From positions 1-64,000 of IMG/VR virus record IMGVR_UViG_3300037245_003482: DNA of 64,000 bases, one strand, 5' to 3'. Under the pieces are notes generated by a model, which saw only the letters and a program-made list of their open reading frames with translations, did not search any database and was not told where the DNA came from. The DNA comes from a virus. Positions 12,725-57,872 of this stretch are shown one piece after another (position 1 is the stretch's first letter; every line of letters begins with the position of its first letter). Made by a program: the position numbers and the translations under genes.

Positions 12725-13208
12725 GATGTACAACTCCATAGTCTGCAATTAATAGTGCATCACCCCTGCCATCCTTTGCACCGCCCCGTGGGCCATATAA
12801 TTCTTTTTCAATTGTGGGGTATTTGGCAGCAGCTTTGGCGCATGAATCTTTTTTACTTTTGCCCCATAGCCCAGCATGCCTTTCCCAACGTTGTGCATTC
12901 ACATGCATAAAAGGTATATTTTCATTATAGGCAAAAAGTATCACAATACCTTCTGCCTTGCCAATATTTTTACCTTGCTGCATGATACTATTACGGCCTG
13001 CATTTGGCCCATTTGCAATAACATGCTCTGCCCAAATGGCATCTATTGGATGTGTAGTCGAAGCAAGGGAACACAATAAAACATCTATTGCAATTGGGTC
13101 TATTTCCTTGTTTTCAAGTGGCATATCCCACACAAAGCATTCTTTTGTTTCTGTGTCAATTAGGGCAAATGCACCACTAATTCCATAATCAATTCCTAAT
13201 ACCCTCAT
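12702..13208 (-). CDS. ruvC: RuvC-like Holliday junction resolvase
   Basis: VLGIDYG, IWAE, DGRGDALLIA catalytic motifs. Confidence 0.85.
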   Translation of the reverse strand: MRVLGIDYGISGAFALIDTETKECFVWDMPLENKEIDPIAIDVLLCSLASTTHPIDAIWAEHVIANGPNAGRNSIMQQGKNIGKAEGIVILFAYNENIPFMHVNAQRWERHAGLWGKSKKDSCAKAAAKYPTIEKELYGPRGGAKDGRGDALLIADYGVVHHEEITTV

Positions 13209-16758: not shown

Positions 16759-16815
16759 AATAACTCCTGTTGTAATTGGGGTATGTTACTACCCCTATTA
16801 TAAAAAGAAAGGTTG

Positions 16816-21978: not shown

Positions 21979-22011
21979 AAAATTTCCTGTTTTTAAAATA
22001 TGTAATAAAAT

Positions 22012-22051
22012 GGCTGCTGCCTAAGAGATATCTCTGCGCGGGGCAGCAGCC
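22012..22051 (-). promoter_or_regulatory. GC-rich stem-loop in the polymerase leader
   Basis: GGCTGCTGCC/GGCAGCAGCC 10-bp stem enclosing the palindrome AGAGATATCTCT. Confidence 0.5.
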
Positions 22052-22080
22052 CACAAATATACTTATATGGTTATTTGTGT

Positions 22081-23223
22081 TTATTCAGGGTCGCTTAAGT
22101 TGCATATAAGGTGCCTGTAATGTTCTGCTTCAAACAGCAACACTGTAACAGGCCCTTCCCCACCCTGTATTTCAGTAACCCAGAAATCCTTTGATTTTGT
22201 GTATATGTCATGCAGAAAATCAGTGGGGTATAGGCAACTAAAACCTTCTTTGATTTTAATTCCATCTGTAGGCCAATCAAGGGCTTCTTCACTGGTGCTG
22301 TCCTTACTTTGGGAGCTTATCATCAAATGTTTTTCTGTAAACGAAAGTTTCACAAAATACAATGAAGCATTGCCATCCTTGCCACTGCTTTTTGCACTCA
22401 TAATACCCACACGTTTAATTGCATCCGGGAAACCTATTGGCAATGTGCCTGCAACAGAATCTTCCTTTTTTTCCAGGCTTGCAAAGTTTTGCAAAAATGG
22501 TACAACTTGCTTGGATGGTTCAATAGCCAATAGTGTGCAACTGAATATTGTGCCCTCAGTTGTTTTAAAATGAACCCAAACATCTTTTTCAACTTCACCA
22601 TCACTGTTGGTGTGGCATTTGGTGTAATGGGTAAATTTTTCATCCAGTTTAAGCAGCTGGCTTGTATTCTGCAGGCTAATCCAAAAATTAGCAATTTCGC
22701 CATCGTCATCCAGTAATGGGGTTTCAAAGGTGTAAATATTTGAGCGCATTGCATCCGTGCTGTACACATGGTTATCATCAAAAATTGTACCTGCATATGA
22801 CTCTTTAGCATTATCAGAAATTTCACACAGCTGCAGGGCCTCTTGAAAATCTGCGGGCAGTTCAATACTGGGGTTAATATTATGTAATTCAGTTACATAT
22901 TCAGGGGTGGCTATTTCTGTAATCCAGGACAATGTTGATTTATTGCGGCCACATTTAATAACCAGCCCTTTTTCACTTGTTTCCAGTGTTATATCATTGG
23001 ACTTGAAACTTTGTACAAGTTTAAAGAATTTTTCACCAATAATTGCCCCTGAAATACCCTCTGTGTCTATTTTAACACTGGCACAAATTGTACCATTGAA
23101 TGTATGGAGGGCACCATCACCAAAAATAATGGTGTCAGCACCTGCCAGGGTGTTTTTGCCTTTTACAATACCAGGCATTACTTTTTTAATAGCACTAAGA
23201 AGTGCTGATTTTTCGATTTGCAT
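22081..23223 (-). CDS. Sliding clamp (DnaN beta-like)
   Basis: 380 aa; MQIEKSALLSAIKKV start, YSTDAMR (ATD..R equivalent), AIKRV; between Pol and nucleotide genes. Confidence 0.75.
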   Translation of the reverse strand: MQIEKSALLSAIKKVMPGIVKGKNTLAGADTIIFGDGALHTFNGTICASVKIDTEGISGAIIGEKFFKLVQSFKSNDITLETSEKGLVIKCGRNKSTLSWITEIATPEYVTELHNINPSIELPADFQEALQLCEISDNAKESYAGTIFDDNHVYSTDAMRSNIYTFETPLLDDDGEIANFWISLQNTSQLLKLDEKFTHYTKCHTNSDGEVEKDVWVHFKTTEGTIFSCTLLAIEPSKQVVPFLQNFASLEKKEDSVAGTLPIGFPDAIKRVGIMSAKSSGKDGNASLYFVKLSFTEKHLMISSQSKDSTSEEALDWPTDGIKIKEGFSCLYPTDFLHDIYTKSKDFWVTEIQGGEGPVTVLLFEAEHYRHLICNLSDPE

Positions 23224-27521: not shown

Positions 27522-27896
27522 ATGACTACTGGGAATAAAACAACAACAGAAGCACCTAAAAAATACCTGTATACAAATGGAAGATGGGGTTTGCGAAGAT
27601 ATTTAATAGCAAGAGAAACCGCTAAAACTTATTTTTTATATATCAATGAGGTATATGAAGAACCTGTTAGAAAAAATAAAATGAGTACAGGTACGGGTTG
27701 GCACGTTTCTTCTTATAAAGAAGAAACCCCTGAACTTTTAGCATTATGGAATAAGGCTATTTTAAGTGCAAAAGCTAAGGAAGCCTGTGATTATTTTATA
27801 GGGCATGTTAACAAATTAAGTGGAGAGTTGCAAAATCAGTTGATTGAATTGGCTGAAAGCCATAAGGATGCACATGCATCTATGGAAAGGGGTTAA
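27522..27896 (+). CDS. Hypothetical early protein
   Basis: GAGG RBS downstream of the promoter. Confidence 0.6.
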   Translation: MTTGNKTTTEAPKKYLYTNGRWGLRRYLIARETAKTYFLYINEVYEEPVRKNKMSTGTGWHVSSYKEETPELLALWNKAILSAKAKEACDYFIGHVNKLSGELQNQLIELAESHKDAHASMERG

Positions 27897-27897
27897 T

Positions 27898-28521
27898 ATG
27901 AAACAATCACAACACACTGAAAATGTAGAAGATTACATGGGCATGATACATAAGGCCGTTAAAAAAGTAAAACCAAGTGAAGCCCTTTACCAGGACCTGG
28001 TATCTGAGGGTATTTTGATTTTTTATACAGCGCTCAAATGCTTTGATGAAACCAAAGGGGCCAAATTCAGTACCCATTTAACCATACACCTGCAGCAGCT
28101 CTTCAACCGTTATTGGTACAAATACCAGGATAAGGCCTATTTGTTCAAATATAATAAGCAGCAAACTGCCTACAGTGGCCATTATGTTAATGGGGGTGAC
28201 TGTGGGGGAGAGCGTGCGGACATGGATTTTGTACAGGAACCTGTTGACGAAAACCAAAGGATGGATCTTGCTTTATTGTACACTGAACTAACACCTGATG
28301 CAAAGCACCTGCATACAGTAATTACATCAGGCACCTTAGTTGCAGAGTTTGGCAAACAACTACGCCTGACCATTACCAACCTGCTTAAAATAGTAGAAGA
28401 ATGGGGTTGGGACAGCACACGCCTAAAAGCTGCATTAATTGATTTACGTGAATTCATATATGAAATGTTTGAAAACACTGTGGAATTAGACACATTGGGC
28501 TATAAGCACAATAAACTATAA
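27898..28521 (+). CDS. Divergent sigma-70-like factor (region 2 recognisable)
   Basis: YMGMIHKAV...YQDLVSEG......LKCFDETKGAKFSTHL. Confidence 0.75.
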   Translation: MKQSQHTENVEDYMGMIHKAVKKVKPSEALYQDLVSEGILIFYTALKCFDETKGAKFSTHLTIHLQQLFNRYWYKYQDKAYLFKYNKQQTAYSGHYVNGGDCGGERADMDFVQEPVDENQRMDLALLYTELTPDAKHLHTVITSGTLVAEFGKQLRLTITNLLKIVEEWGWDSTRLKAALIDLREFIYEMFENTVELDTLGYKHNKL

Positions 28522-29079: not shown

Positions 29080-29115
29080 ATAGTAACACATTACTTTTAA
29101 TATTGTATACTTACT

Positions 29116-43793: not shown

Positions 43794-45272
43794 ATGGCAT
43801 ATGAAGCATATGGAATGAACCTCCAAAACAGCTATTGGTACAAAATAGAACAGGCAATGGGGGCCAGGAAGGAAGAAGCCACAGAGGCCCTGATGGAACG
43901 TGATGTCAGGATCAAAATACTGCAACTCATATGGGATGAACCAGAGGTACTGGGGCACATGGTGGGCTTTACCGATGGCACCCCAATGCATGGGCAATGG
44001 ATTAAGAAGCTTTGGGACAACCTGCAACCAGGGGAAGACAGGAACATGATGGCCCACCGTGGTAGCCTGAAAACCAGTTTCATAACACAGGTAGGCAGCC
44101 ACAGGGACCTGATATTCAATCCACACCACCGTATTGCTATCTTTCGCCCTGCACAACACCAATCAATTGATATAACCCGGGTAGTACGCAACTGGTACAA
44201 TTTGCCACCTATTATTGCATTATTAACAGAGGCACCCTTACATTTCAGCCTTAAAGAACTAACAGGCAAAGAGAAATCAATCAAATGGGGGTTCATGCCC
44301 CCTGCAATGCGCTCGAGGAAAGAAGGCAACTTAGACAGCTGGGGCATGCTTGGAACCACGGGGTACCACTATGACATAATGGTAATATGTGACATAGCAA
44401 CAATTGATGACCGCACCAGTAGGGCCAAACGGGAAAAAACCAAGGCCTTTGTGCGTGAAGTACGGAATAACATCAAAGACCCAAATGCAAATGTGCTAAT
44501 GGAAGGCACCACCTGGCACCCTGAGGATGTATGGAGTGAATGGCCTGCAGACTTCAAAGTAAATGTGTACCAAAGTGGCCTGCGAACAGATGACCAAATA
44601 ACCAAAATGAAAGACGGTTACATTAATAAAAATGGGGAATGGGTACCGGGGCTTACAGCTGTGGAATTTGGGTGCAACCAGATGCTGGAGCATTTGAACA
44701 GCGAGGACCAGATATTTGGTGACCCTGCCTATGGTAAGTTTGTTAATACACAACAACCTTCATACATGCATGTAGACGCCAAGTACAAAGGGGACCACAC
44801 TGGCGCAATAACATTATTACAAAAGCGCACAGACGGCCTGTGGAGCGGAAGGGGCTGGGTATTTGATAACCATGTGGATGAGCAATATGATTTTATTGTA
44901 ACTAACTGCATGGCCCACAATGTCCGTGTGTGCTATATGGAAGAAAATGCAGATAAGGGCCTGGTAATACGGGACCTTGTGAAACTGGGCAGGAAGAAAC
45001 GCTGCAAAACTAAGTTCCGCAATTATAATGAATCCACTGAAAAACACACCAAAATACAAAGTTGGGGCAAAAGGTATTACAACCAAATATTGTGGGATGA
45101 TAAAATGCAGCACAGTATCAATTGGAGAGGTGGGCCAACTGTGCCAAATGGGCATGCATATATAAACCAGGTCATTATGTACATGGATGGGGAAGACCTG
45201 AACGATGGCCCAGACAGCATGGCAAGCCTATTGCGGGAAATATATGACAAAAAGGGCAAAGGTTTGTGGTAA
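43794..45272 (+). CDS. terL: Terminase large subunit
   Basis: HRGSLKT Walker A variant, TGYHYD.MVICD, EGTTWHPED, RNase H-like HVD / EEN / DGPDS. Confidence 0.88.
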   Translation: MAYEAYGMNLQNSYWYKIEQAMGARKEEATEALMERDVRIKILQLIWDEPEVLGHMVGFTDGTPMHGQWIKKLWDNLQPGEDRNMMAHRGSLKTSFITQVGSHRDLIFNPHHRIAIFRPAQHQSIDITRVVRNWYNLPPIIALLTEAPLHFSLKELTGKEKSIKWGFMPPAMRSRKEGNLDSWGMLGTTGYHYDIMVICDIATIDDRTSRAKREKTKAFVREVRNNIKDPNANVLMEGTTWHPEDVWSEWPADFKVNVYQSGLRTDDQITKMKDGYINKNGEWVPGLTAVEFGCNQMLEHLNSEDQIFGDPAYGKFVNTQQPSYMHVDAKYKGDHTGAITLLQKRTDGLWSGRGWVFDNHVDEQYDFIVTNCMAHNVRVCYMEENADKGLVIRDLVKLGRKKRCKTKFRNYNESTEKHTKIQSWGKRYYNQILWDDKMQHSINWRGGPTVPNGHAYINQVIMYMDGEDLNDGPDSMASLLREIYDKKGKGLW

Positions 45273-45293
45273 AGGTTTTTATAATAGGGGTGT

Positions 45294-45388
45294 AGGCAGG
45301 TGAAGTACAGTAACCTGATGTACTTATTGGGTTAGCGCCCCTGGGGTTATATAATGCTGCTATGCAGCAGGCTCCCCAGTGCCTTTTT
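45294..45388 (+). ncRNA. Small structured RNA or leader
   Basis: Begins right after the promoter motif; AGGCA/TGCCT, AAGTACA/TGTACTT, CTGGGG/CCCCAG, GCTGC/GCAGC. Confidence 0.45.
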
Positions 45389-45402
45389 AACAGGAGTAAC
45401 AA

Positions 45403-46433: not shown

Positions 46434-47312
46434 ATGAAAGAAGCACCAATGGGCCGTGCCCAAATAAAGAAAGAGCTTATACATGTGAACGCAGGGCGGA
46501 ATGAACCCCCACGCTATGCAGAAGCAATTTACTATGAACGTGAGGACAAACAGGTCATTTGTTTTTCAACCCAATTAAGTTGCAGTGTGGGTTGTGCCTT
46601 TTGTGCATCACCAGGACCAGAAAAAACAGTAAACCTTACAGCAGGGGAAATATTGGCCCAAATCAATTACTTTGGTGCTGATATCAATATGGGCAAAGTG
46701 ACCCTATTGAGCGTAATGGGGGAAGGTGAACCATTGTTAAATTATAGCAATGTGATGAAGGCCCTGAAATTGGCAGTTAAGCACGAGGCATTCCAGGGGG
46801 TAGGGGGTGTTAAAATAGCATTAAGTACCAGTGGGGCAGCCCCTGCAAAAATAAAGCAGTTGGCCAAGCATAACAGATTCTACACCAAATATGACGAGGC
46901 TCCTGTGCCATTCAAATTACAGGTTTCATTACACTTTGCTGGTATAGAAAAACGAGTGAAATATATGAAGAATGCTGCATCTTTGCGAGGGCTACAAGAA
47001 GCCTTATCCTGTTACACCAGGGACAAAGGTGCCCATGCAGCACCTGTTGAACTTAACATTGCACTTATTGATGGGGTTAATGATAGCCTGTATGATGCAG
47101 TGCTGGTAGTGGCAAATTTCCCTGAATACCATATAAAAGTCAGTAAGTACAATATGATTGAACGGGCTGAATTCAAACCTGCAACTGATCAGAAAACAGC
47201 TGCATTTGTTGCCCATTTAGATATGGTGGGTATGTCAGTTGAATATCATGAAACAGATGGCAGTGGTATTGGTGGGGCCTGTGGGCAAACCAGGGGCATG
47301 CGGAAAAGTTAA
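46434..47312 (+). CDS. RlmN/Cfr-like radical SAM methyltransferase (N-terminally short)
   Basis: CFSTQLSCSVGCAFC, MGEGEPLLN, LSTSG, LQVSLH, GVNDS, GACGQ. Confidence 0.88.
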   Translation: MKEAPMGRAQIKKELIHVNAGRNEPPRYAEAIYYEREDKQVICFSTQLSCSVGCAFCASPGPEKTVNLTAGEILAQINYFGADINMGKVTLLSVMGEGEPLLNYSNVMKALKLAVKHEAFQGVGGVKIALSTSGAAPAKIKQLAKHNRFYTKYDEAPVPFKLQVSLHFAGIEKRVKYMKNAASLRGLQEALSCYTRDKGAHAAPVELNIALIDGVNDSLYDAVLVVANFPEYHIKVSKYNMIERAEFKPATDQKTAAFVAHLDMVGMSVEYHETDGSGIGGACGQTRGMRKS

Positions 47313-47347
47313 ATAAGTAACTTTGTATAATAGGGACAAAGGCATTG

Positions 47348-47432
47348 TGGGCCGCTGCTTTTTAGGCCCAGGGCATAGGGTTGTCGCAACTGGGGGGTGA
47401 TGGCCCCAGTTAACCCCTTGCCCCATAAGCAG
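47348..47432 (+). promoter_or_regulatory. Structured 5' leader with possible pseudoknot
   Basis: TGGGCC/GGCCCA, GGGCA/TGCCC, AACTGGGG/CCCCAGTT, loop CTGCTT complementary to AAGCAG. Confidence 0.45.
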
Positions 47433-47443
47433 AAAGGAATAAT

Positions 47444-50383
47444 ATGAAAAAGAGTAAATTTAAGAAAGGTGACCGGGTGGTTGCTTTGATTAATCAGTAT
47501 AGAGCTGGTGATGTGGTAGTGAAAGCAGGGCACAAAGGCACCATATTGGAGGAAACTGATGTACCCTTTGTTGAATGGGATAAATTTGTTAATGGGCACT
47601 CAGCCAACGGTTTAGGCAAAAAGGGCCATTGTTGGTGTAATGAGGGGCACAACCTTAAAAAGGTACCTTGGTATAAAAAGCTATTAGGTTTGGGGTAATA
47701 TATGAGCAGCTTAAAACTAAAGACCAAATGGGTAAAACACCCAAAAGTACCTGTGTGGGAAAACAACAAGGGCATCCGCATCCATGTTTCAGGTGGTCTA
47801 TTAGGTAAACCAGGCACCCATTTCCTTTGTGTTGTGCGGGACCATATGGTAAAGGAACCTTACAGCTATTTCTACAAATTAACGGGTGGCAACCGAAAAC
47901 GGGCCCTTATGGCAGCAGCTGAGGAAATAGCAGCACCTGGTTCATTCTATCATGCTGTGTTTATTGGGGAACATAGCCCATTGAAAGGTTTTATTGATAC
48001 ACCTGCATTGGAGCAAATATGAGCCGTTTAAAACTAAAGACCAAATGGAAAAAATCAGGGATAGGTAGTTGGTTTAATGCTACCTATACCACCTTGTGGG
48101 TGGGCCGCCCACTAGATATTTGGTATCCAAAAAATAGCCCCATGGATATTTGGCATTCAAAAATAACTACTTCGTCCACCCCTTTGCAAATAAATACTAA
48201 GCACCCACGGTATTTGCATATGCTCAAAGTAACAGGCTGGAACTACAAAAGGGCAACAATGGGTTATGTAGAATGGCTGATATCAGGGAAAGAACTATGA
48301 GCAACAGGTACAAAGGCCGCAAAATGCCCTGGGTGTATAAGTTACAACGGGCAGAACAATCACCATGTATCAATTGTGGGATGCCTGGTAGCCATTTTAT
48401 CCCACCATCACTTGGGGAAGAAGGTTTCTTCCTATGTACAAAACCAGCCATATTGGAAATGGCGCATAGGCTTATTGAATGGAAAATAGGGCAGGAAAGC
48501 AAGAAAGGCCCATTGCCACTTAAGGACAAAATGCCTGATTACTCTGATGCAAGGGGGCCGGGCATAGCTGCTTGGGTAGAAAAGCAATGTAAGGGTATGT
48601 CGGTTAGTTATGTGCCTGGGGGTGTATTTGCCTTTAGCATAGGGGGCACAGCAGAAATGATGAATATAAAAGGTACTGTGGAAATATGAAACCAATTACA
48701 TCTATCATAGGGCTAGAATTTATACCAGGGGCCACGGTAGCATTAAAAAAGGACCAAGAACCAGTGGGGAAACTATTGGACATCTGGTGCTTTCACAATA
48801 AAGGGCCTATAGCTGTAGTTCAGTTACCCAATGGAAAAAGGGGCAACTGGGACTTATCTTTATTATTAGTAGTTGAACAAAGTGACAAGAAAGAGGAGTA
48901 ACCATGTCAGCTGAAATAATTGAACATAAGCATGAAAATGGAAATGTTTACCATACCACAGTTATCTATGATGCTATTGGAACCACGTTGCCCATATTAT
49001 CAATTATAGAGCAGTACCAAAGGACTATCCCCCCTGCACATATTATACATGTTATCTGTACTGTGGATCAAATACATCCATTCCCAGATTTCGTAGACAC
49101 CAAAACCAATACCTATTTGGATAAACCAATACACCATTCCGAAAAGTCAAAACAGATAAATTGGGACCGGGTAGCTGTATATGTAAATACACCTGAAGAT
49201 TGTGCCCAATGTGTACAACAGATAAAAGAAAGCGTGAAACAATTACCTGCTCCCCCAATTAATACCTGGAAGCTTAGAGACATACCAAACCCAACACCTG
49301 AGACACCATTTGATAAAAGAAGCTGTTATGACTGCTGCCACATAAGAGCAGCATGCAGCTTGTGGTGTGGTAATACAAAAGCTAGGAAGGCCAGGGGCAC
49401 ATCAATACCCGGGTGCATCCATTGCCCATATTGGGGGCCTGCTTGGAAAATGATAACAAAGGAATACAGGACAGCAGAATATGGTTATGTATCCAAATGG
49501 CAAAAGTTTAAGAAATTCCTTTATAACTTATTATAATAGGGGCAGGAGGCCATTATGATAGTAAAAATGGAAGTAGGTGCAAAGGTTGAAGTATTGAAAA
49601 ACTTAGGGACTAATTCCACTTTTGCCACACAGGAAACAGCGACCAGCAAAGGTGAAATAGTAGCAATAAAGTCTATTTTTTACCCTTATTTGTATGCAGT
49701 ATTAAGGGCAGATGGCAAAGAGGTTTTAGCCACAGGGGCACAAGTGAGGGTGGTGCAGGATGAATAACAGATTTGGGCTTGATGTAGCTTATTACCGTAA
49801 AGAACTAAAGGCACTTAGTGATTCATTGGTGGACAGAACACCAGAGGAACTTAATAGGTACCTTTTGACCATGGCTGGTAAGAAGCCTAGTACAAAAGAA
49901 GAGGCAACAGTAACAGTGCCCCCATATGTAAAAAGTGGGTATGCCAAGCTTATAGCAGACTTTGCTGAAGATTTACCAGAGCAGCCAAATGTGGCCAAGG
50001 TTTTGAAGCAGGCAAGGTTTACATTATGTACTATTTTCCAGGGGCATAAAGAAAGTATGTCATTGCATGGGTACCATAACCGTGTTTGTGATTTTTTGCA
50101 TGATTTAGAAATGGAACATAAAAATAGTGAAGAAAAGGAAAAAGAAGAACCAGTACCTGTCTATAACCTAGAAGGGTGGGCTAAAATACAAAAGGCCCTA
50201 GCAGAGGATAAGAACTTATCACATGCTATTCTATTCCCAGAAAAGGAACCATGGCGCAATGCTGAACTTAATGCAATGGCCCGCGCTATTGTAGGGGAAA
50301 CAATACAACCAGGCAGCAAGGATTTCTTTGTTGATTTGGTGTACAAAATATTAAAAGAAGTACAGAACAAGTTTACCCATTAA
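47444..50383 (+). other. Array of eight small hypothetical ORFs including two LKLKTKW paralogues
   Basis: Coupled ORFs starting at 47444, 47702, 48019, 48297, 48686, 48904, 49555, 49760. Confidence 0.7.
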
Positions 50384-50402
50384 CTTTATATAATAGGGGT
50401 AA

Positions 50403-50586
50403 GAGCACATTGGAAGGTGACATTGTAGTATATATGACCGCAGGAAGGACCAACTCCCAATATGGGCGAAGGAAAGTACTGGACAGGGGTTGGAAAAGCT
50501 ACAAGCATTGCATTGGTTTAATGTAACCTGGGATGCCAATGCGGGTGCCCCTTGGTACCAACAAGGGGGCGCCTTCCAATGTGCTT
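50403..50586 (+). ncRNA. Multibranch ncRNA of about 185 nt
   Basis: 17-bp terminal stem plus three internal arms; starts about 9 nt after the TATAAT motif. Confidence 0.7.
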
Positions 50587-50609
50587 TATCATTTAAAGGC
50601 TAATATGAA

Positions 50610-50683
50610 CGTGATGTAGCTCAATTGGTGGGGCGCCTTGCTTATAGGTAAGGAAGTAGGTGGTTCGATTCCATCCATCGCGG
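50610..50683 (+). tRNA. tRNA, probably Ile(UAU), with an atypical 8-nt anticodon loop and no encoded CCA
   Basis: CGTGATG-TA-GCTC/GGGC D arm-CCTTG/TAAGG-GGTGG TTCGATT CCATC-CATCGCG. Confidence 0.8.
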
Positions 50684-50701
50684 CTTTTTAAAGAGGATAA
50701 T

Positions 50702-52352
50702 ATGACCCACAATGAAGCATATGAAAAGTACCCTGAAATAATGGGCATTAATAAACCAGCAAGAATGCCCCCACCTGTTATTTTTGAACCAGCTGAAAAT
50801 GTTACGACCCTTATATTCCTTGAGATCATACAGGCAAGGGTTACAATGTGTGAAGTGTTGGCCTATGTGCTATTAGTGCAGAAACAGGCCCCAAAGCATC
50901 ATATTATTTATTTAATGGGCACTGAGTACCAATTCCACCCGTTTGTAGGCTACCACATGTTAAATGGGGGCACAATAGAGGCACAGGACCCCATTTATAC
51001 TTATGATACGTTCTTAGCTGAATTAGATATGAGCAGGATGGTACTGGCTTCTGTTAGTTGTGGGGCAGAAGCCCATTGTTTCATAGAAAGAAGAATGGAA
51101 ATAGGGTATTAGATGTCAGAAGAACTAATAATAGTAATAGCATGGGAACAGCTGCACAAGGCCCTTATTGGCTTTCGTAGGAAAATAGGGTGCAATGTAC
51201 CCATTACCCAAATAAACTTTGATAACATAGTTACAGAGGCAAATAAGGGACTGGAAAAAGAATGCCCCGGGTGTGCTATTGAACAGTTGGATTTCCAGGG
51301 GTATTTGAAACATGGGGCTATTAAAGTTAAAAACATGGGCACTGATGAGCAATTGGGCCCAGAATGTGTTATAATAGGGTAAAAGGAGTATAAAGTGGCA
51401 GATGAAAATGAAAAAGAAGCAATTGTAGAAGGAAAAGAAGAGGCTATTGATGCCATAATTGCCATAATGAAAGGGTGTAAATGCGATAAGGAAGCAGCCA
51501 TTGTGCTATTGAAGAGGGGGCAGGCAATCATACTACAGGCCTATGATACTGTTACTGAGGAAGAAATACAAACTGAACTGATACGGAGGGCATAATGCCA
51601 AAGTTTAAGAAAGGTGATACAATACGGGTGCATACACCAGATTTAATCAACGCCCTTTGTGCAAAAAGGGGAGCCATTGGTAAAATACACCATTTGTCAC
51701 TATATGGAGGAGGGGCTTACGTCAAGTTTCCAGGGTACCGAGGACTGCATTTAATTTACAACAGGGAAGCCTGTGTTATTGTGCAACCAAGCACCAGCCC
51801 AGCAGCTGCAACAATGATTGTGGGGGCCTGGTAATGCCCTTTGAACAAGCAGATGATGGTGAAATCTGGGAAGATGGCACAATGTACACGGATGACATTT
51901 GTGGGGAATGTGGCAATGAGCCTGAAGATTGTGAATGTGATGAGGAGGACTAAATGAAACAAAATTCCAAATTAGAAATAGCCCTGGGTATTGCAATGGT
52001 GTTATTTATTGCTATAAGCATGGGCATAAATTGCAGCTTCCAGAATGCAGTGGAAATTGATACCACAGTGGATACAACGCCCACAATGCACCATACAATT
52101 AGTGATTTTACTATTTATGATTATAATGTGCAATAAGGTGCGGGTATGAAATTAGTACCTGGGTGCAATTACCATACAACATGGCAAAAAGACAAAGCAA
52201 TGCGTTTTGTACTTGCCTATGTGGAAAAGGATTGGGCCATATTATTCACCAGGGGCACAAGGAAGTTATTTTGGTGTAGAGTTAAAGACCTTATTTTCAT
52301 TGAAACAAAGTACAATATTGAAAAAGGTGTTAAAATCCTGGAGCCGGGATAA
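50702..52352 (+). other. Array of small hypothetical ORFs
   Basis: ORFs starting at 50702, 51113, 51395, 51595, 51834, 51954, 52146 with RBS or coupling. Confidence 0.65.
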
Positions 52353-54680: not shown

Positions 54681-55490
54681 ATGAGTAACAACGCATTGAA
54701 TAGATACATGGATGACATAGGCAAAACTCCCCTTATGAGCAGGGAGGAAGAAAAAAGCATAATTACAAAGGCGCAGCATGGGGACATGAAGGCCCGGAAC
54801 GCATTGATACTAGCCAATATGCGTTTAGTTGTTGCAGTGGCCCTTAAATACAAAACAAAAAGCCTACAACCTGAAGACCTGATTAGCATAGGGGCATTAG
54901 GACTTATTCGGGCCATTATTGAATTTGATAACACAAGGGGCCTTAGGTTAATTTCATATGCTGTGTGGTGGATAAGAGCTGCTATTAACCAAGATTTGAA
55001 TGATGTGGATAATCTTATAAAGCTGCCCAGTAATAATGCATACATAATAAGAAAGGCCTTATTGGAAGTTGATTTAGGGTTTGCTGTACCAAAAAAGGTA
55101 GTTGCAATGATAGAAGCCAGGGACCGCATTTTTTATTTAGATAATAATGGGCCAGAAGAGTTATCCGATTTAGGACACAAACCAAAGCCTCGTGATTTAG
55201 AGTACAAAGGGTTAGAAGACACTATAGTACAAAAAATGGGGCGTGCACAGTTTAATAAAGAAATTAAGGGTAGGATTGAAAAATTACCACCAAAGCAAAA
55301 AAAGGCACTTTCATTGTACTATGGCATAGGGTATGACCACACTTATACAGTAAGGGAAGTGGGGGAAATTCTGGGGTGTTGTAGGCAAAATGTGCATCAG
55401 CTAATGAGGCAAGGTCTTACGGGGCTACGTAGGAAACTACCAAAAAGTTATTACCTTGAAAAATTACAATCAATGACAGTAAGTGAATAA
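54681..55490 (+). CDS. Sigma-70 family factor (RpoD/RpoS-like; regions 1.2, 2 and 4)
   Basis: LNRYMDDIGKTPLMSREEE, ANMRLVVAVA, DLISIG..GL, ISYAVWWIR, TVREVGEILGCCRQNVHQ. Confidence 0.93.
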   Translation: MSNNALNRYMDDIGKTPLMSREEEKSIITKAQHGDMKARNALILANMRLVVAVALKYKTKSLQPEDLISIGALGLIRAIIEFDNTRGLRLISYAVWWIRAAINQDLNDVDNLIKLPSNNAYIIRKALLEVDLGFAVPKKVVAMIEARDRIFYLDNNGPEELSDLGHKPKPRDLEYKGLEDTIVQKMGRAQFNKEIKGRIEKLPPKQKKALSLYYGIGYDHTYTVREVGEILGCCRQNVHQLMRQGLTGLRRKLPKSYYLEKLQSMTVSE

Positions 55491-56107: not shown

Positions 56108-56219
56108 CAATGTATTAATATAAAATTATTAGGTATAGTGTTTTTGCATAAAATGGGTGCAACATAAATAGGGGTATAATGTTTTATATTTAAAGTAATA
56201 AAAGCAAAGTAGGGTGCAT

Positions 56220-57872
56220 ATGTCTGAAGGTATGAATAAAGTCGATATGCAGGTAATGATGCAGCAGGCAATGATGATGCTGGGTCAGATTACTAATAAT
56301 GACAAACAGCAAGTCAGTGGGGCCTGGGCCGATTTACGTAATGATAGCTGGGCTAATTTCAATAGCGGTATAGGCACATCTGATGACAAATCAGAAGGCA
56401 ACACATTCACTGCAGGCTATGTTACACCTGGGTCTGTTTTTGAGGCTATGTACAGGCAAGACGGTATTTCTAAAACTATCATAAAGGCCCCTGCAAAGGA
56501 TGCCACAAAAAACTGGGTGAAAATAACAGAAGACACAGACAATAAAATATTAAATGAACTAAAACGAGTAAAAGCAAAGCAGGCATTTAGCCAATTGGTA
56601 ATACATGCCCGTAAGTTTGGTGGTGGGGCTATTTTAATCCAAACCAAAATGGGGGACGCCTTAGACCAACCTATTGACCTTAATTCAGCAACAGAAATAC
56701 AAGGGCTTAAAAATTTCCACCGCTATGACTTTGAGATTTTGGAAAGTGATATTAATAGGGATGACCCAGCAGACCCCAATTATGAAGAAGTTGAACTATT
56801 CAGGCTAAGAAAAAGGCATGGTATTGGGTTTGTTGAAATACATAGGTCCCGCCTTGTTATATTAAAAGGGGAACAGTTTGACGAAGTGAACCAGGGCAGT
56901 GGTGCAGCCGGGGGTACTTTTAATACAGCTGAAAATGAGTATTGGGGGGGCAGTGTGCTTGAGGCAATGCTTGATGCCCTTGGGTATTATGGCCTTGGTA
57001 TGAAAGCTATTTCAACAATGATGCAAGAGGCCACCATTGGTAAGTTTCTAATGGCGGGCCTGCAGGACCTTTTGGCAGATATGTCAGACAGTGAAGATGT
57101 TGAAACACAACAAAAAGCATGGAAGAAATTCAATGACCGCATTAAGGCCATGGTAATGACCAAAAGTGTGATACATTCTATTTTGCTGGATGCGGAAGCC
57201 AAAGAAGATTTCAAACGAGAACAGGTTAATTTTTCAGGTATACCAGAAGTGATGAACTTGAACCAAATGCAAATATCAGGAATGTCCAGTATACCTATTA
57301 CTAAGCTATTTGGGCGTTCTCCTGGGGGTGAAAATGCCACTGGTGAAAGTGATGCAGAAAACTATAATTCTCTTTGTATTGGGATACAGGAGGATATTGA
57401 ACCAGGTGTGCAGTTTTTAGTTGACTTAATAACCAAAGGGGAAAGTAAAAATATTGTTGATTTCAACCACCCCAAAATGCCAACAGAAGAAGAACTATTG
57501 TCAATGAAGAAAACACAGTCAGAAATTGACAAAATATATGTTGCAGACACAGGAATATTAGGAGCAGAAGAAGTTAGGGCAAGCCGTTTTGGGGGGGAGG
57601 AATATAGTTTTGATACTAGCATCCAAAGCGACAAATTACCCCCTGGCACTACTGTAGAAAGTGTTGCTGCAGAGGACGCAATAGAGGTGCAGAAATACCT
57701 GGGCACCCTTGAAGGTGTGGAACAAAAGAAACTTGATGAAAAAATAGATTATGTAATCGATGCCCTTAAAATCAAAGGATTCCATAAACTTGATGAAAAA
57801 GCGCAATATGACACGCTTAAGGCAGTGGGGCATTTCACAGAAGAACAAATACAACGTATATTAGGCGCCTAA
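56220..57872 (+). CDS. Portal protein (DUF1073-type)
   Basis: DSWAN..SGIGT..DK, AR.FGGGAI, IHRSRL, WGGSVL, IPITKLFGRSPGG.NATGESD. Confidence 0.92.
   Translation: MSEGMNKVDMQVMMQQAMMMLGQITNNDKQQVSGAWADLRNDSWANFNSGIGTSDDKSEGNTFTAGYVTPGSVFEAMYRQDGISKTIIKAPAKDATKNWVKITEDTDNKILNELKRVKAKQAFSQLVIHARKFGGGAILIQTKMGDALDQPIDLNSATEIQGLKNFHRYDFEILESDINRDDPADPNYEEVELFRLRKRHGIGFVEIHRSRLVILKGEQFDEVNQGSGAAGGTFNTAENEYWGGSVLEAMLDALGYYGLGMKAISTMMQEATIGKFLMAGLQDLLADMSDSEDVETQQKAWKKFNDRIKAMVMTKSVIHSILLDAEAKEDFKREQVNFSGIPEVMNLNQMQISGMSSIPITKLFGRSPGGENATGESDAENYNSLCIGIQEDIEPGVQFLVDLITKGESKNIVDFNHPKMPTEEELLSMKKTQSEIDKIYVADTGILGAEEVRASRFGGEEYSFDTSIQSDKLPPGTTVESVAAEDAIEVQKYLGTLEGVEQKKLDEKIDYVIDALKIKGFHKLDEKAQYDTLKAVGHFTEEQIQRILGA

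Follow-up and report, generated by a model that had tools for sequence, protein, structure and literature searches.

Only a few of the small RNAs encoded by phages have been assigned a function. The locus analysed here raises the question of what is encoded by a stretch of 184 nt (50403-50586), free of genes, that lies between a promoter-like motif and the only tRNA of an uncultivated tailed phage: an RNA with a life of its own, a leader acting in cis on the transcript that it opens, or DNA that folds incidentally. The phage is represented by an IMG/VR record of 74,014 bp, and its first 64 kb form the stretch of DNA called hereafter the window, whose numbering is used throughout unless another sequence is named. 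A sequence-only reading of the window had proposed, for this stretch, a multibranched RNA driven by a promoter and released by processing of the tRNA. The 184-nt stretch is called below the element.

A gene-free gap ahead of the single tRNA

The phage genome encodes a large terminase (43794-45272), a portal protein (56214-57872) and two sigma-70-type factors (27844-28521 and 54681-55490). Its best portal match among GenBank phages is 29% identical, and the phage has no close cultured relative. Genes around the element are all on the + strand and tightly packed, and the gap that harbours it is 318 nt long. It extends from the stop codon of a 207-aa orphan ORF (49760-50383, +) to the start codon of a 136-aa orphan ORF (50702-51112, +), which has its own ribosome-binding site. 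Found in this gap are, in order, the promoter-like motif (50380-50399), the element (50403-50586), a 23-nt A/U-rich spacer and the tRNA (50610-50684).

The 136-aa ORF matched neither Pfam nor PHROG, and was without homologue in the protein collection. It is probably carried by the same transcript as the element, since the next promoter motif is encountered only at 51370. In the ESM Atlas, both flanking proteins gave low-scoring matches only, the first at 0.87 and 0.76, values under 0.9 being leads only.

No coding potential was observed in the element. Its + strand contains no ORF of at least 40 aa, and no gene call for the region was found among 5.8 billion protein clusters, queried via the translation of a minus-strand ORF that runs across the RNA. 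The only ATG-started ORF seen on the + strand has 30 codons; it opens with the ATG at 50433, closes with the TAA at 50523-50525 and could specify a basic peptide of 30 aa. Chance alone would be expected to yield a frame this long, no homologue of the peptide was found, and the only Shine-Dalgarno-like run is 13 nt upstream and buried in a 17-bp helix described below. We consider a gene for such a peptide extremely unlikely.

A promoter-type motif repeated along the genome

The motif that precedes the element (50380-50399, +) is of a phage promoter type and is composed of TAACTT, 2 nt, TATAAT and AGGGG, the TATAAT hexamer being at 50389-50394. Its 10-mer TATAATAGGG is present in 11 exact copies in the 74-kb genome, at window positions 16802 (minus strand), 26407, 29757, 42041, 45280, 47326, 49532, 50389, 51370, 54088 and 54655; 10 of the 11 are on the + strand ahead of + strand genes. 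When up to one mismatch was allowed, 25 matches were counted versus 8.8 expected, and none of 100 shuffles reached 25. A longer consensus is common to the copies, TAACTT followed after 2 nt by TATAATAGGGG, with TAACTT itself standing ahead of several of the exact copies. Nearly all of them immediately precede, on the coding strand, a ribosome-binding site and a start codon, and in several the AGGAGG ribosome-binding site begins just 6-7 nt after TATAAT. Similar motifs are present in the relatives of the phage (see below).

The repeated motif is most likely a phage-specific class of promoter that has no spaced -35 element. A search for a T7-type polymerase gave no match to PF00940, and the control of this search also matched nowhere. 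Transcription is predicted to start at about 50396-50403, that is, 0 to 7 nt ahead of the closing helix of the element. The element had been described from the sequence as promoter-driven and as starting about 9 nt past the motif. The former claim is well supported in silico by a motif that is repeated genome-wide and stands directly 5' of the element; for the latter, the computed distance from the closing helix is 8 nt when measured from the end of the TATAAT hexamer and 3 nt when measured from the end of the full motif.

Several non-coding stretches were noted beside promoter-type sequences elsewhere. Downstream of copies 45280 and 47326 there are leaders of about 100 nt (45291-45392 and 47337-47435) with GC-rich hairpins, ahead of genes. 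Copy 29757 is at the end of a stretch of about 700 nt (29080-29780) without convincing ORF and with several GC-rich stems. In one relative, G001, a gap of 237 nt contains tandem units of about 55 nt with a GTAACTTTTTTAAAAAAGT-like promoter-type sequence (locus L033, 6120-6330, minus strand).

Predicted fold of the element

The + strand of the element (50403-50586), folded with RNAfold, had a minimum free energy (MFE) of -73.4 kcal/mol (z -4.91), and none of 200 dinucleotide shuffles was as stable. The MFE and the centroid structures are both a four-way junction, closed by a helix of 17 bp. This helix, P1, joins 50403-50419 to 50570-50586 by 15 Watson-Crick and 2 G-U pairs, with pair probabilities of 0.87-1.0, except for the outermost pair (0.70).

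Arm 2 (50423-50504) consists of P2 (50423-50429 with 50498-50504, 7 bp, probability about 0.9), an internal loop of 20 nt on one side and 4 nt on the other, P2a (50450-50457 with 50486-50493, 8 bp, probability about 0.5) and a purine-rich apical loop of 28 nt. Arm 3, or P3 (50505-50542), directly abuts P2 with zero linker. It is made of 6 + 4 + 4 bp, with outer pairs between 50505-50510 and 50537-50542 and GGTT/AACC further inside, and its probability is about 0.5. The sequences CATTGG and CCAATG recur inside the element, so that an alternative 7-bp register of P3 exists. Arm 4, or P4 (50548-50568), has a 7-bp stem (50548-50554 with 50562-50568, probability about 0.9) and a 7-nt loop; it holds a 10-nt palindrome, TTGGTACCAA, and ends 1 nt before the 3' strand of P1. 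The linkers of the junction measure 3, 0, 5 and 1 nt. Directly 3' of P1 comes a U-rich run, TTTATCATTT, and a consensus scan gave only a weak terminator-like score where this helix ends.

The 17-bp terminal helix and arms 2, 3 and 4 had all been described in the sequence-only reading, and each of them was recovered at the same coordinates in the MFE structure. Core pairs of P1, P2 and P4 have probabilities of at least 0.9, their terminal pairs 0.66-0.87. Since P2a and P3 reach only about 0.5, the inner portions of arms 2 and 3 must be regarded as uncertain.

The fold is biased towards one strand. The reverse complement is weaker (-60.8 kcal/mol, z -3.30), leaving the + strand more stable by 12.6 kcal/mol, and the non-Watson-Crick pairs of the helices, five out of five, are G-U on the + strand and would be A-C mismatches on the minus strand. 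When the element was folded inside 50401-50720, together with the tRNA, its structure was unaltered and the tRNA cloverleaf formed independently alongside. The G+C content of the element is 50%, versus about 40% for the genome.

Over both strands of the whole genome, 6422 segments of 184 nt were folded with a correction for G+C, and the element came out at rank 4 of 6422 (z -3.47). Comparably stable segments exist inside coding DNA, so that the stability of the element is high, not unique. The case for the element rests on this stability taken together with the gene-free gap, the strand bias, the raised G+C and the position. The coding segments that equal or surpass the element in GC-corrected stability (z -3.5 to -3.7) are 21989-22172 and 12858-13041, both on the minus strand, and 73670-73853 of the genome on the + strand (locus L037, 9670-9853).

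Two further readings of the loops were dropped. The loops of arm 2 hold GGA-rich runs without statistical enrichment, and a CsrA-type sponge was discarded, with 7 GGA motifs in the element against about 4.6 expected by our own estimate, a difference that is not significant. Loop-loop pseudoknots were discarded as well, the matches being of 4-5 nt at most.

The tRNA and the ends of the transcript

The tRNA (50610-50684, +) was detected by ARAGORN and scored 44.2 bits with the Rfam tRNA model, for a cut-off of 29. It was expected from the sequence to begin 23 nt after the element and to be the only one of the phage, and both statements held, the second for the whole 74,014-bp record. Its anticodon loop is of 8 nt (CTTATAGG) and no CCA is encoded. 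ARAGORN assigned it a 4-base anticodon, and Infernal the anticodon UAU, after which come A37 and one extra base; UAU corresponds to Ile (AUA). The AUA codon is used 30.4 times per 1000 codons and makes up 45% of the Ile codons of the phage, a usage that an AUA-decoding tRNA fits. Given its good score and this match to AUA demand, this tRNA is probably in use and would therefore be matured by RNase P.

A 10-nt run, GGGGCGCCTT, is common to the 3' part of the RNA (50564-50573) and to the D-stem/anticodon-stem part of the tRNA (50630-50639). The sharing is weak (p about 0.012 by shuffling). The run contains the palindrome GGCGCC, so that its two copies could also pair together.

No promoter and no strong terminator were found between the element and the tRNA. 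An RNA of about 185-190 nt would be transcribed from the phage-specific promoter, opening a transcript that would run on into the single tRNA, apparently AUA-decoding, and into the small ORF. It is reasonable to expect that a cut by RNase P at the tRNA 5' terminus, 23 nt past the element, would detach everything upstream. The spacer (50587-50609, +), predicted to remain as a 3' tail after this cut, is largely unpaired when the whole transcript is folded (a 4-bp hairpin in the MFE structure, none in the centroid), and exonucleases would trim it back to the terminal helix of 17-18 bp. Alternatively, the 3' end could be produced by partial termination at the U-rich run that follows the closing helix. 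The 5' end would be at most a few nt away from the terminal helix, which would in this way hide both ends of the RNA and make it long-lived.

The position of the element at the extreme 5' end of its transcription unit could also mean that it acts only in cis, without existing as a free RNA. As a leader, it may shield the 5' end, serve as a processing signal for RNase III or RNase E, modify the polymerase in a put-like manner, or be a leaky terminator that sets the ratio of the short RNA to the tRNA and mRNA. The U-rich run after P1, with its weak terminator-like score, is consistent with such a leader, and promoter copies 45280 and 47326 likewise precede hairpin leaders of about 100 nt. However, these two leaders are no more stable than their shuffles (z -1.2 and -1.5), and a 184-nt four-way junction far exceeds what the protection of an end needs. 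No alternative pairing of the terminator/antiterminator kind was seen, and a P1 of 17 bp is too stable for switching. Excision of the tRNA would, moreover, disconnect the element from the downstream mRNA, which makes a simple cis-stabilising role unlikely, and the tRNA itself should need no 5' stabiliser. A purely cis-acting leader is, in our opinion, rather unlikely.

Three relatives of the phage lack the locus

Homologues of the element were looked for by several means. A covariance model built on the single sequence detected only the element itself in the 74-kb genome (237 bits), with no second copy. Run with filters off, it detected nothing in three relatives of the phage (G001, L039 and L040), nor in 31 unrelated loci. 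With blastn in 'distant' mode, no match was obtained in 50,697 GenBank phage records and none in 72,556 plasmids. Exact-pattern scans of IMG/VR returned 0 matches each for a loop segment of the RNA, for the T-arm and acceptor of the tRNA and for its anticodon arm. The ends of the closing helix, at their own spacing, had 0 matches in the representative genomes of 185,579 prokaryote species.

Searches with the neighbouring proteins were of similar outcome: the flanking proteins and the portal revealed no relatives in IMG/VR, an alignment of the flanking proteins none in JGI metagenomes, and a terminase alignment none in prokaryote genome contigs. The sole homologue found for the upstream 207-aa protein (P0002, 57% identical) is on a Logan contig of 4155 bp.

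The three relatives are syntenic with this phage and have terminases 63-71% identical to its own. G001 was found via locus L019, one of 30 single promoter-motif matches in IMG/VR, by comparing all ORFs of the window. It is a complete genome of 67,980 bp with terminal repeats, syntenic over most of its length, at about 45-70% protein identity. L039 and L040 were found by terminase alignment. The terminase and portal of L039 are 63% and 56% identical to those of this phage, the same figures as for G001, and L040, a metagenome contig, is closer and collinear, with a terminase 71% identical. As to gene order, the terminase of G001 (66174-67634; L036, 6174-7637) points the opposite way from the portal and sigma genes; in the window and in L040, terminase, portal and sigma genes all have the same orientation.

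No tRNA was found in G001, L039 or L040, and it is the entire locus that is missing in all three, not a locus that has diverged. In L040, where both flanking genes are recognisable, the slot is occupied by an unrelated ORF of 141 aa and has no non-coding gap. Since the locus is missing in the relatives, promoter, RNA, tRNA and 136-aa ORF form a lineage-specific cassette in a variable region. The relatives function without the RNA, which is therefore dispensable for the lineage, and because they run their sigma programme and their packaging motor without it, it cannot be integral to either.

A gene for a radical-SAM protein of 292 aa (46434-47312; Pfam Radical_SAM, E 7.5e-8) was noted upstream in the window. 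Its homologue is absent from G001 and L040, the two relatives screened; L039 spans the terminase-to-sigma region only and has no bearing on the presence of this gene. As neither the RNA, nor the tRNA, nor the radical-SAM gene has a homologue in G001 and L040, the three may have been gained together.

Absence from 3 of 3 relatives, with an unrelated ORF in the slot of the closest one, is also what would be expected of lineage-specific DNA, inserted or recombined, that has no RNA function and folds incidentally. Such DNA could be MITE-like or a decayed remnant brought in along with the tRNA cassette. The ends of the element do form a 17-bp terminal inverted repeat, coding DNA reaches a similar stability, and the minus strand folds too (z -3.3). 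Yet the genome holds no second copy, no such repeat ends exist in the representative genomes of the 185,579 prokaryote species, and neither phages nor plasmids gave a match. Inserted DNA would explain poorly the folding bias towards the + strand via G-U pairs, a G+C raised like that of the neighbouring tRNA, and the precise placement behind a phage-type promoter. We hold an origin of this kind, without RNA function, to be unlikely. A MITE or other small repeated mobile element was rejected specifically: despite the terminal inverted repeat, the element is single-copy and has no matches elsewhere. A retron msr-msd was rejected too, as the inverted repeat is present but the 74-kb record has no RVT_1 match.

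Comparison with known RNAs

Among the 4227 families of Rfam 15, only tRNA matched at gathering scores over the whole window, and when E values up to 10 were accepted over 50200-50800 (601 nt), there was no match besides the tRNA. These negative results cover 6S, SRP, RNase P, tmRNA, pRNA, Y RNA and the known ribozymes and riboswitches. The earlier remark that the branched fold does not fit 6S, SRP or RNase P is thus borne out by cmscan, no family at all being matched. Inside 50403-50586, no tRNA was recognised by ARAGORN or by the Rfam tRNA model (E up to 10). Y RNA/YrlA was rejected, as there is no Rfam match and no T-loop sequence in any arm. The element belongs to none of these families, and has no match in the phage records searched.

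Two known RNAs had to be considered in view of the two sigma genes and of the location of the element between terminase and portal. The first is 6S RNA (RF00013 and related families), to which the element is similar in length and by its paired 5' and 3' ends, in a phage whose own sigma factors reprogram transcription. E. coli 6S is 184 nt long, exactly the length of the element. The second is the phi29 pRNA (RF00044), which is about 120-174 nt long and likewise has paired ends, a multi-helix junction, its own promoter and a place in the packaging-gene region. GUAC is found in the loops of P4 and P2a alike, and could allow loop-loop contacts, but a 4-nt loop match is expected by chance. Neither RNA gave a covariance-model match (E up to 10 for 6S), and the element is a four-way junction, whereas 6S is an interrupted rod whose large central bubble imitates an open promoter. 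A difference from phi29 is that the large terminase and the portal of this phage are of the ordinary kind. In the relatives, whose sigma, terminase and portal genes match those of the phage at 34-71% identity (terminase 63-71%, portal 56-67%), the RNA is missing, so that it cannot be an essential part of the motor. That they retain both sigma genes without it also weakens the link to the two sigma factors that the length of the RNA had suggested. Both 6S and pRNA were rejected as such, and a 6S-like RNA binding polymerase or sigma, or a pRNA-like packaging RNA, is extremely unlikely.

Small ribozymes often occur in phage intergenic settings near tRNA. The element, a multi-helix junction with large loops, closed by P1 and placed beside a tRNA in a phage intergenic region, might on this ground process or control the transcript of the tRNA, either as a self-cleaving ribozyme of a new kind or as an aptamer that binds a ligand. 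The known ribozymes and riboswitches were rejected, with no Rfam match at E up to 10 and only the weak terminator-like site where P1 ends. An expression platform was not detected, and a conserved core is not definable without homologues. A new ribozyme or aptamer is very unlikely.

The closest parallel in terms of genetic setting is with RNAC and RNAD, two small RNAs from the tRNA region of T4 whose roles are still unknown (PMC3014915, PMC9697503). They are, as is proposed for the element, phage-encoded non-coding RNAs that share a transcription unit with phage tRNAs and are freed by tRNA processing; at the present locus, promoter, RNA and tRNA are in line, which places the element in the tRNA transcription unit. 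The element differs from them in having no sequence similarity (blastn, GenBank phage records), in being promoter-proximal, larger (184 nt) and closed by 17 bp, and in accompanying one tRNA instead of a cluster.

In its junction geometry only, the element recalls the tRNA cloverleaf. Both are four-way junctions, with linkers of 3, 0, 5 and 1 nt here and of 2, 1, 4-5 and 0 nt in tRNA, and in both the last arm has a 7-nt loop and is followed almost at once by the 3' half of the closing helix. In contrast to tRNA, the arms of the element are two to three times longer, and it has no T-loop or D-loop sequence.

Adenovirus VA RNA and the Epstein-Barr EBERs are abundant, stable RNAs of about 160-180 nt, with a long terminal stem and a branched centre, that bind host proteins. 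The element, as a small viral RNA with both ends in a long stem and a branched centre, resembles them by analogy of mechanism only: they are polymerase III transcripts of eukaryotic viruses, the comparison implies no homology and predicts no binding partner.

A possible free RNA and its role

From a fold, a strand bias and a promoter context that are directly supported, in an element of no coding potential and no known family, we infer an RNA that is transcribed, processed and stable. The explanation that we tentatively favour is a stand-alone stable RNA, freed by RNase P at the tRNA and binding a protein. Its first part, the stable RNA, is reasonably grounded; the protein-binding role is a guess. 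Counted in favour of a free RNA were the folding score (z -4.91), the fold being kept in the context of the transcript, the strand bias, the G+C, the promoter and the gene-free gap, to which are added a tRNA that is probably matured and the precedent of T4 RNAC and RNAD. Counted against it were the lack of any homologue found, the relatives that do without it, the equally stable segments of coding DNA, and the probability of only about 0.5 for P2a and P3.

From the linkers of 3, 0, 5 and 1 nt, P1 is predicted to stack on P4, and P2 on P3. Stacked in this way, the RNA would expose the purine-rich loops of arm 2, the 20-nt internal and the 28-nt apical one, as a binding surface. Its likeliest role would be that of a protein-binding scaffold or decoy made during infection.

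A more ambitious proposal, drawn by analogy with VA RNA and the EBERs, is a new class of trans-acting structured phage RNA that would be a decoy or a scaffold for some protein of host or phage origin. Such an RNA would be made early, from a cassette that includes an unusual AUA-decoding tRNA, near the radical-SAM gene, and a defence factor that senses RNA, or an enzyme that modifies it, could be among its targets, on which it would act in the manner of VA RNA or the EBERs. We regard membership in such a new class as distinctly unlikely.

The element is an orphan, limited so far to one phage lineage, and its interpretation as a free RNA is plausible, if unproven. As a candidate from a single genome, it has the value of a lead, not of a result. 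If a promoter-driven folded RNA does travel with a tRNA as an accessory cassette, the locus would provide a clean and small system in which the roles of such RNAs may be approached.
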